Origin: Escherichia coli | Lineage (GTDB): Bacteria > Pseudomonadota > Gammaproteobacteria > Enterobacterales > Enterobacteriaceae | Assembly: GCF_001677475.2 (NCBI RefSeq) | Contig: NZ_CP015229.1 | Length of the DNA stretch: 64,000 bases | Direction: 5' to 3' (one strand) | Part shown: in pieces, positions 5,320 through 6,050 of the stretch | Position numbering within the stretch: position 1 is the stretch's first letter | How the letters are laid out: every line of letters begins with the position of its first letter | The notes under the pieces: generated by a model | The model's database searches: none | Told to the model about the DNA's origin: nothing | The model's input: the letters and a program-made list of their open reading frames with translations, nothing else | Made by a program: the position numbers and the translations under genes

Positions 5320-5880
5320 CAGGTTTTGAGTATTTACAGGAAGTGATGGTGGTGGGGGAAGGATTACTCAGCGCTGCGTGCTTCACCCTTCGGGTCGTTG
5401 CCTGCGGCAACGCTCTCTCGCTGGCGCTCGAGTCGAACCTTGGTCGAAGCTTCTCATCCTTCCCCGCTTGGGCAGAATATTTAATTACGGATTCGTTTGA
5501 GAGTTCAGGGACTTTTGAAAGTTATGGTGGTGGGGGAAGGATTACTCAGCGCTGCGCGCTTCGCCCTTCGGGTCGTTGCCTGCGGCAACGCTCTCTCGCT
5601 GGCGCTCGAGTCGAACCTTGGTCGAAGCTTCTCATCCTTCCCCGCTTGGGCAGAATATTTAATTACGGATTCGTTTGAGAGCTCAGGGACTTTTGAAAGT
5701 GATGGTGGTGGGGGAAGGATTACTCAGCGCTGCGTGCTTCACCCTTCGGGTCGTTGCCTGCGGCAACGCTCTCTCGCTGGCGCTCGAGTCGAACCTTGGT
5801 CGAAGCTTCTCATCCTTCCCCGCTTGGGCAGAATATTTAATTACGGATTCGTTTGAGAGTTCAGGGACTTTTGAAAGTGA
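5320..5880 (-). repeat. rttR: tyrT-distal tandem repeats: three full 178-bp units plus a partial unit (rttR/tpr region)
   Basis: Units begin at 5347, 5525 and 5703 with exact period 178; each starts with the last 19 nt of the tRNA 3' end (tggtggtgggggaaggatt); a partial unit precedes 5347. Confidence 0.85.
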
Positions 5881-5965
5881 TGGTGGTGGGGGAAGGATTC
5901 GAACCTTCGAAGTCGATGACGGCAGATTTACAGTCTGCTCCCTTTGGCCGCTCGGGAACCCCACC
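5881..5965 (-). tRNA. tyrT: tRNA-Tyr (anticodon GUA), 85 nt including CCA
   Basis: Reverse complement reads GGTGGGGTTCCCGAGCGGCCAAAGGGAGCAGACTGTAAATCTGCCGTCATCGACTTCGAAGGTTCGAATCCTTCCCCCACCACCA; ends anchored against track ORF 5675..5974. Confidence 0.97.
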
Positions 5966-6007
5966 ACGGGGTAATGCTTTTTACTGGCCTGCTCCCTTAT
6001 CGGGAAG

Positions 6008-6050
6008 CGGGGCGCATCATATCAAATGACGCGCCGCTGTAAAGTGTTAC
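6008..6050 (-). promoter_or_regulatory. tyrT promoter (-35 TTTACA, 16-bp spacer, -10 TATGAT, GC-rich discriminator)
   Basis: Minus-strand sequence TTTACAGCGGCGCGTCATTTGATATGATGCGCCCCGCTTCCC about 40 nt upstream of the tRNA 5' end; matches the classical stringently controlled tyrT promoter. Confidence 0.75.

Follow-up and report, generated by a model that had tools for sequence, protein, structure and literature searches.

How many tRNA-Tyr genes does the tyrT locus of this Escherichia coli strain carry, and by what route did it come to differ from the laboratory reference? E. coli K-12 has three tRNA-Tyr genes, two of which, tyrT and tyrV, lie under the common tyrT promoter (PMC2887954). The window, by which we mean the whole 64-kb stretch of DNA analysed here, holds the tyrT locus between purU and narI (Table 1). 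A first-pass annotation, made from the sequence, had recognized one intact tRNA-Tyr gene at this locus and had proposed a one-copy allele, with the K-12 tandem pair as its point of reference. The one-copy tyrT allele of the window is a real, ordinary and already known polymorphism. Very probably, it is a natural allele that descends from a two-copy ancestor by deletion of one tRNA gene together with one spacer.

Exactly one tRNA gene was found in the 64-kb window by ARAGORN, a tRNA-Tyr with anticodon GTA, and an Rfam scan of the whole window likewise returned a single tRNA. The second gene of the tandem pair, tyrV, was absent from the 64-kb window by both methods, in agreement with the earlier annotation. 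All 85 nucleotides of the window's gene are identical to both tyrT and tyrV of K-12 MG1655 (85/85 in each case). The 19-nt sequence at its 3' end, AATCCTTCCCCCACCACCA, is present four times in the window at a spacing of exactly 178 nt, once inside the tRNA and once at the close of each 178-bp unit downstream. Unlike this 19-nt suffix, the 20-nt suffix of the tRNA occurs only once.

Table 1. Features of the tyrT locus and its surroundings, in window coordinates.
Feature	Position	Strand	Evidence
GC-rich hairpin and T run after narI, far edge of the locus	5181..5202	plus	Terminator scan: stem of 9 pairs, 6 G-C
narI ORF	4485-5162		ORF list; feature names under similarity matches
Partial fourth unit, first bases TCACTT	5341..5346	minus	TRF array end at 5341; unit print-out
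178-bp unit 3	5347..5524	minus	TRF; RtT RNA 5347-5478, RF00391 134.9 bits; translation
178-bp unit 2	5525..5702	minus	TRF; RtT RNA 5525-5656, RF00391 137.1 bits; translation
178-bp unit 1	5703..5880	minus	TRF; RtT RNA 5703-5834, RF00391 134.9 bits; translation
tRNA-Tyr(GUA) gene	5881..5965	minus	ARAGORN; Rfam tRNA 53.4 bits; exact identity to K-12 tyrT and tyrV
5' leader of tRNA precursor	5966..6008	minus	Alignment; same as tyrT leader of two-copy alleles
tyrT promoter	6016..6043	minus	Promoter scan, 10/12 matches; like K-12 tyrT upstream region
purU ORF	6125-6967		ORF list; feature names under similarity matches

The repeats that follow the tRNA were described by Tandem Repeats Finder (TRF) as one tandem array (5341..5899) with a period of 178, 3.1 copies, 97% matches and 0% indels. 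Scanning the whole window with Rfam RF00391 gave three full-length RtT matches at 135-137 bits, against a gathering score of 45. The 'partial unit' of the array is made up of the 19 nt held in common with the tRNA at one end and ∼6 nt (TCACTT) at the other, and the sequence past the latter is no longer repeat. Array period, RtT matches and 19-mer spacing bear out the original description of three exact-period units plus a partial one, each unit closing with the 3'-terminal 19 nt of the tRNA. The window units are 174-177/178 identical to one another (97.8-99.4%) and 168-172/178 identical to any K-12 unit (L001, 1205-1763). This greater mutual likeness suggests homogenisation inside the array.

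The units also differ in coding capacity. Within window positions 5347-5880, a Tpr-like ORF of 29 codons is intact in unit 2 only. Units 1 and 3 have a TGA after codon 24, made by a C-to-T change, and a linked G-to-A change lies 6 nt downstream of it. This T...A versus C...G difference was considered as a compensatory pair in the RtT RNA and then dropped, as minimum-energy folds leave both positions unpaired.

On the upstream side, the promoter scan and the match to the K-12 upstream region place the tRNA gene directly behind the tyrT promoter, as had been claimed. The promoter comprises a -35 hexamer TTTACA (6043-6038), a 16-nt spacer and a -10 hexamer TATGAT (6021-6016), with TG just before the -10 and a GC-rich discriminator, GCGCCCC, after it. 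Judged by the distance to the -10 hexamer, transcription would start near position 6008. In alignments with two-copy alleles, the window's leader is the same as that of tyrT and not that of tyrV. Elsewhere in the window, Rfam found two further RNA elements at their expected positions: the sRNA STnc180 at 53171-53374 (plus strand), upstream of acnA, and the trp operon leader at 39112-39205 (minus strand).

The K-12 reference has the arrangement that had been assumed. In the purU-narI interval of MG1655, tyrT is followed by a 209-bp spacer, by tyrV, and by 3.1 units of 178 bp; rttR and tpr are also annotated in the interval. The spacer consists of a diverged RtT-like unit, again with the 19-mer at its end, and, after it, the 33-nt tyrV leader. 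Over this interval, the window is 294 bp shorter than MG1655, which is exactly the length of one tRNA gene plus the 209-bp spacer. The two loci have in common the promoter, the leader, the tRNA, the 3.1 copies of the 178-bp RtT repeat with its 19-nt tRNA 3' end, and the flanking genes. The window differs in lacking the second gene, tyrV, and the inter-gene spacer, as well as in the sequence of its repeat units.

K-12 is a distant point of comparison, and nearer ones were sought. No close relative of the window's lineage was found among 5,426 complete E. coli genomes, in which the best identity to the window was 99.1% over positions 6000-16000 and 98.2% over 39001-64000. Both of these segments have the K-12 gene order, with no large insertion. 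Relatives were instead located by exact-sequence look-up of the window's NarH, which returned 123 blocks; the same look-up with PurU was useless, its allele being present in 93,752 blocks. The draft assembly L017 (GCA_031299685.2) differs from the window by 1 mismatch in ∼9 kb and has one tRNA and 1.1 repeat units. L019 is ∼99.5% identical, with one tRNA and 2.1 units. Of the two-copy relatives found, L020 is the closest, at 99.3-99.6% identity; it carries two identical tRNAs 34 nt apart, followed by 2.1 units.

At the tRNA genes, the window and L020 align with a single clean indel of 119 bp, the length of one tRNA and the 34-nt spacer together. The tyrT leader lies at one border of this indel and the tRNA body at the other, and the flanks are identical on both sides. 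Because of this clean gap, the window's ancestor likely had the 34-nt spacer rather than the K-12 arrangement, and the deletion would have removed 119 bp rather than 294 bp. Beyond these relatives, three more divergent Escherichia-like contigs (L018, L021 and L022) also have single-tRNA loci, so the one-copy state is not in every case a recent derivation. These three, together with L015 and L016, are contigs with an identical NarH protein, and comparison with window positions 1-9170 gave 97.2-97.5% identity on the nar side and 89-91.5% on the purU side. The sharp drop across the tyrT locus is possibly the trace of a recombination boundary; alternatively, the nar genes may be strongly conserved in a divergent Escherichia.

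A second pair of genomes provides the same contrast within a clone. Among O157:H7 strains, M1300706002 has two copies with the long spacer and F7508 has one. The two sequences have 0 mismatches over ∼3.1 kb and are separated by a single 294-bp indel, corresponding to one tRNA plus the 209-bp spacer. By these comparisons, one-copy tyrT is a recurrent copy-number polymorphism, presumably produced by recombination or slippage between identical direct repeats.

The frequency of each allele was then taken from the 5,426 complete genomes. Alleles were counted with short junction queries, at E-value limits that only an uninterrupted full-length alignment could pass; plain similarity searches with queries of 285 nt, 1.1 kb and 4.7 kb were unfit for counting, as pieces around the repeats were joined or split inconsistently. 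The architecture of the window, with the tyrT leader, one tRNA and a 178-bp unit, was present in 195 genomes. A further 390, mostly ST131, have the tyrT leader and one tRNA, after which comes a 7-kb island without repeats. Two or more tRNAs lie 33-34 nt apart in 2,910 genomes, and two tRNAs are separated by the K-12 209-bp spacer in 1,921. Together these four classes cover 5,416/5,426 genomes. The number left unmatched by the K-12 spacer query, 1,693, was discarded as a one-copy count, since spacer variants with one mismatch lack the 28-nt seed.

The collection is weighted to clinical clones, and its figures describe frequency among sequenced genomes, not among lineages. Read in this way, the 34-nt-spacer allele is the commonest (54%), the K-12 form with its 209-bp spacer is a minority (35%), and two-copy alleles make up ∼89% of complete genomes. 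One-copy loci, all without a tandem tyrV, account for 585/5,426 (10.8%). Several sequence classes, at 96.3-100% identity, make up the 195 window-type junctions, and the hosts and serotypes concerned are unrelated. At the other extreme, a query of three tandem tRNAs identified 43 genomes with three or more tandem tRNA-Tyr genes and 34-nt spacers, a subset of the 2,910. One record among these 43 matches at three separate places. The earlier reading was right about the presence of a one-copy allele; at a single-copy frequency of 10.8%, the allele is not unusual.

How might one gene be lost so precisely? In an ancestor arranged as tyrT-spacer-tyrV, the two 85-bp tRNA genes would form identical direct repeats. 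A natural one-copy allele, short of exactly one tRNA gene and the spacer, would result if replication slipped or unequal homologous crossing-over took place between these repeats. In the window's lineage, the ancestor would have had the 34-nt spacer and the deletion would have been 119 bp. Both against L020 and within the O157:H7 pair, the deleted segment is exactly one repeat plus one spacer, with identical repeats at its bounds and no scar. The reciprocal expansion products expected of unequal exchange are present in the 43 genomes with at least three tandem tRNA-Tyr genes. Scar-free loss, identical repeats, recurrence and alleles with at least three copies fit unequal homologous exchange and slippage alike, and sequence alone does not separate the two. 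The crossover point is invisible because the two tRNA genes are identical, and we therefore infer the direction of change from the distribution of alleles instead of reading it from the sequence. Of the first-pass proposal of unequal crossing-over, a deletion between the duplicated genes is upheld by the L020 indel, the O157:H7 pair and the alleles with at least three copies; the 294-bp loss that the K-12 form implies is probably to be replaced by 119 bp from the 34-nt-spacer form.

The product of such a deletion would be flanked by the promoter and leader of tyrT and, on its other side, by the downstream repeats of tyrV. As the surviving gene keeps both, its transcription and processing should be normal. 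The number of tRNA-Tyr genes would fall by one, from three to two in the whole genome if tyrU, which lies outside the window, is present; any change in tRNA level or fitness is, like the choice between the two mechanisms, something we infer. Singlets of this kind have a laboratory counterpart. Russell et al. (1970, J Mol Biol 47:1) reportedly described the conversion of the tyrT doublet to a singlet in su3 strains. The su3/supF singlets likewise have one tRNA-Tyr behind the tyrT promoter and come from unequal exchange between the tandem genes. They are laboratory and transducing-phage derivatives of K-12, whereas the allele of the window is natural, belongs to a lineage far from K-12 and most likely came from the 34-nt-spacer form.

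A single tRNA could also be a product of assembly, if the strain in fact has two tRNA-Tyr genes and their 85-bp copies were merged into one. The near-identical draft L017, with 1.1 repeat units against 3.1 in the window, suggests that repeat collapse is possible in drafts. However, the window assembly resolves three units that are 97.8-99.4% identical, a harder task than keeping apart two 85-bp copies with unique sequence between them. One tRNA is likewise seen in the close-relative assemblies L017 and L019, and the same junction is spanned by a single alignment in 195 complete genomes. An assembly artefact is thus very improbable, and the one-copy allele is best taken as a property of the strain. 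Its direction of change is a separate matter, since one copy might be ancestral in the window's lineage and two-copy alleles, as in L020 and other relatives, might be later duplications. Such a history is unlikely in our judgement, even though single-tRNA loci are known in the divergent contigs L018, L021 and L022 and copy number is able to rise, as in the 43 genomes with three or more copies. Ancestral singleness sits poorly with two-copy alleles in ∼89% of complete genomes, and the one-copy genomes are scattered, for example inside clonal O157:H7. In addition, the tyrV leader, TCTCAAG[C/T]ATTACCTCA[A/G]AATTTGAATTACCCCT, is found both at the tyrV-proximal end of the K-12 209-bp spacer and in the 34-nt spacers of L006, L008, L009 and L020, and a new duplication would not recreate this unique spacer.

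Deletion from a two-copy ancestor is therefore the preferred account, and it leaves room for different views of why copy number varies. Neutral drift may be set against lineage-specific selection on tyrT copy number (one, two or at least three tRNA-Tyr genes; 0-5 RtT units), to which we give little credence. Possible drivers of such selection would be tRNA-Tyr-cutting defence combined with phage-borne tRNA-Tyr, or translational demand. Both tRNA-Tyr-cutting defence systems and phages supplying a tRNA-Tyr of their own have been described (PMC11555353). If selection does act, the one-copy, RtT-free state of the ST131 type would be one of its outcomes.

For the window itself, the finding is of minor importance; the allele lowers the number of tRNA-Tyr genes by one. 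With ∼11% of complete E. coli genomes in the one-copy state, those of the ST131 type included, that state is clearly tolerated. No paper on copy-number variation of tyrT/tyrV in nature came up in full-text literature searches. The census is of wider use, as many strains will be misjudged if annotation or models of tRNA dosage treat K-12 as the standard.

The region downstream of the tRNA is also variable. The number of 178-bp units ranges from none in L009 to five in L003. In the ST131-type locus, one tRNA-Tyr again stands behind the tyrT promoter and adjoins purU. Unlike the window, this allele has no RtT repeats at all, and between its tRNA and narI lies a 7-kb, 7-gene island (L014, NZ_AP022032.1, 1192-8073; also L002). 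The island encodes a fatty-acid desaturase, a sterol desaturase, a PAP2 phosphatase, an F390-synthetase-like protein, an MBL hydrolase, an epimerase and a KAS III-like protein. These seven genes occur in L005 after tyrT, tyrV and one repeat, and the ST131-type tRNA meets the island at the same TCAC... point that follows the last 19-mer in L005. The 19-nt copies evidently act as deletion end points too. Two alleles are odd. L008 has a second tRNA copy that escapes detection with up to 4 mismatches allowed and is without the exact 19-mer. In the metagenome scaffold L004, one intact tRNA is followed by irregularly spaced 19-mers, 175, 190, 242, 278 and 178 nt apart.
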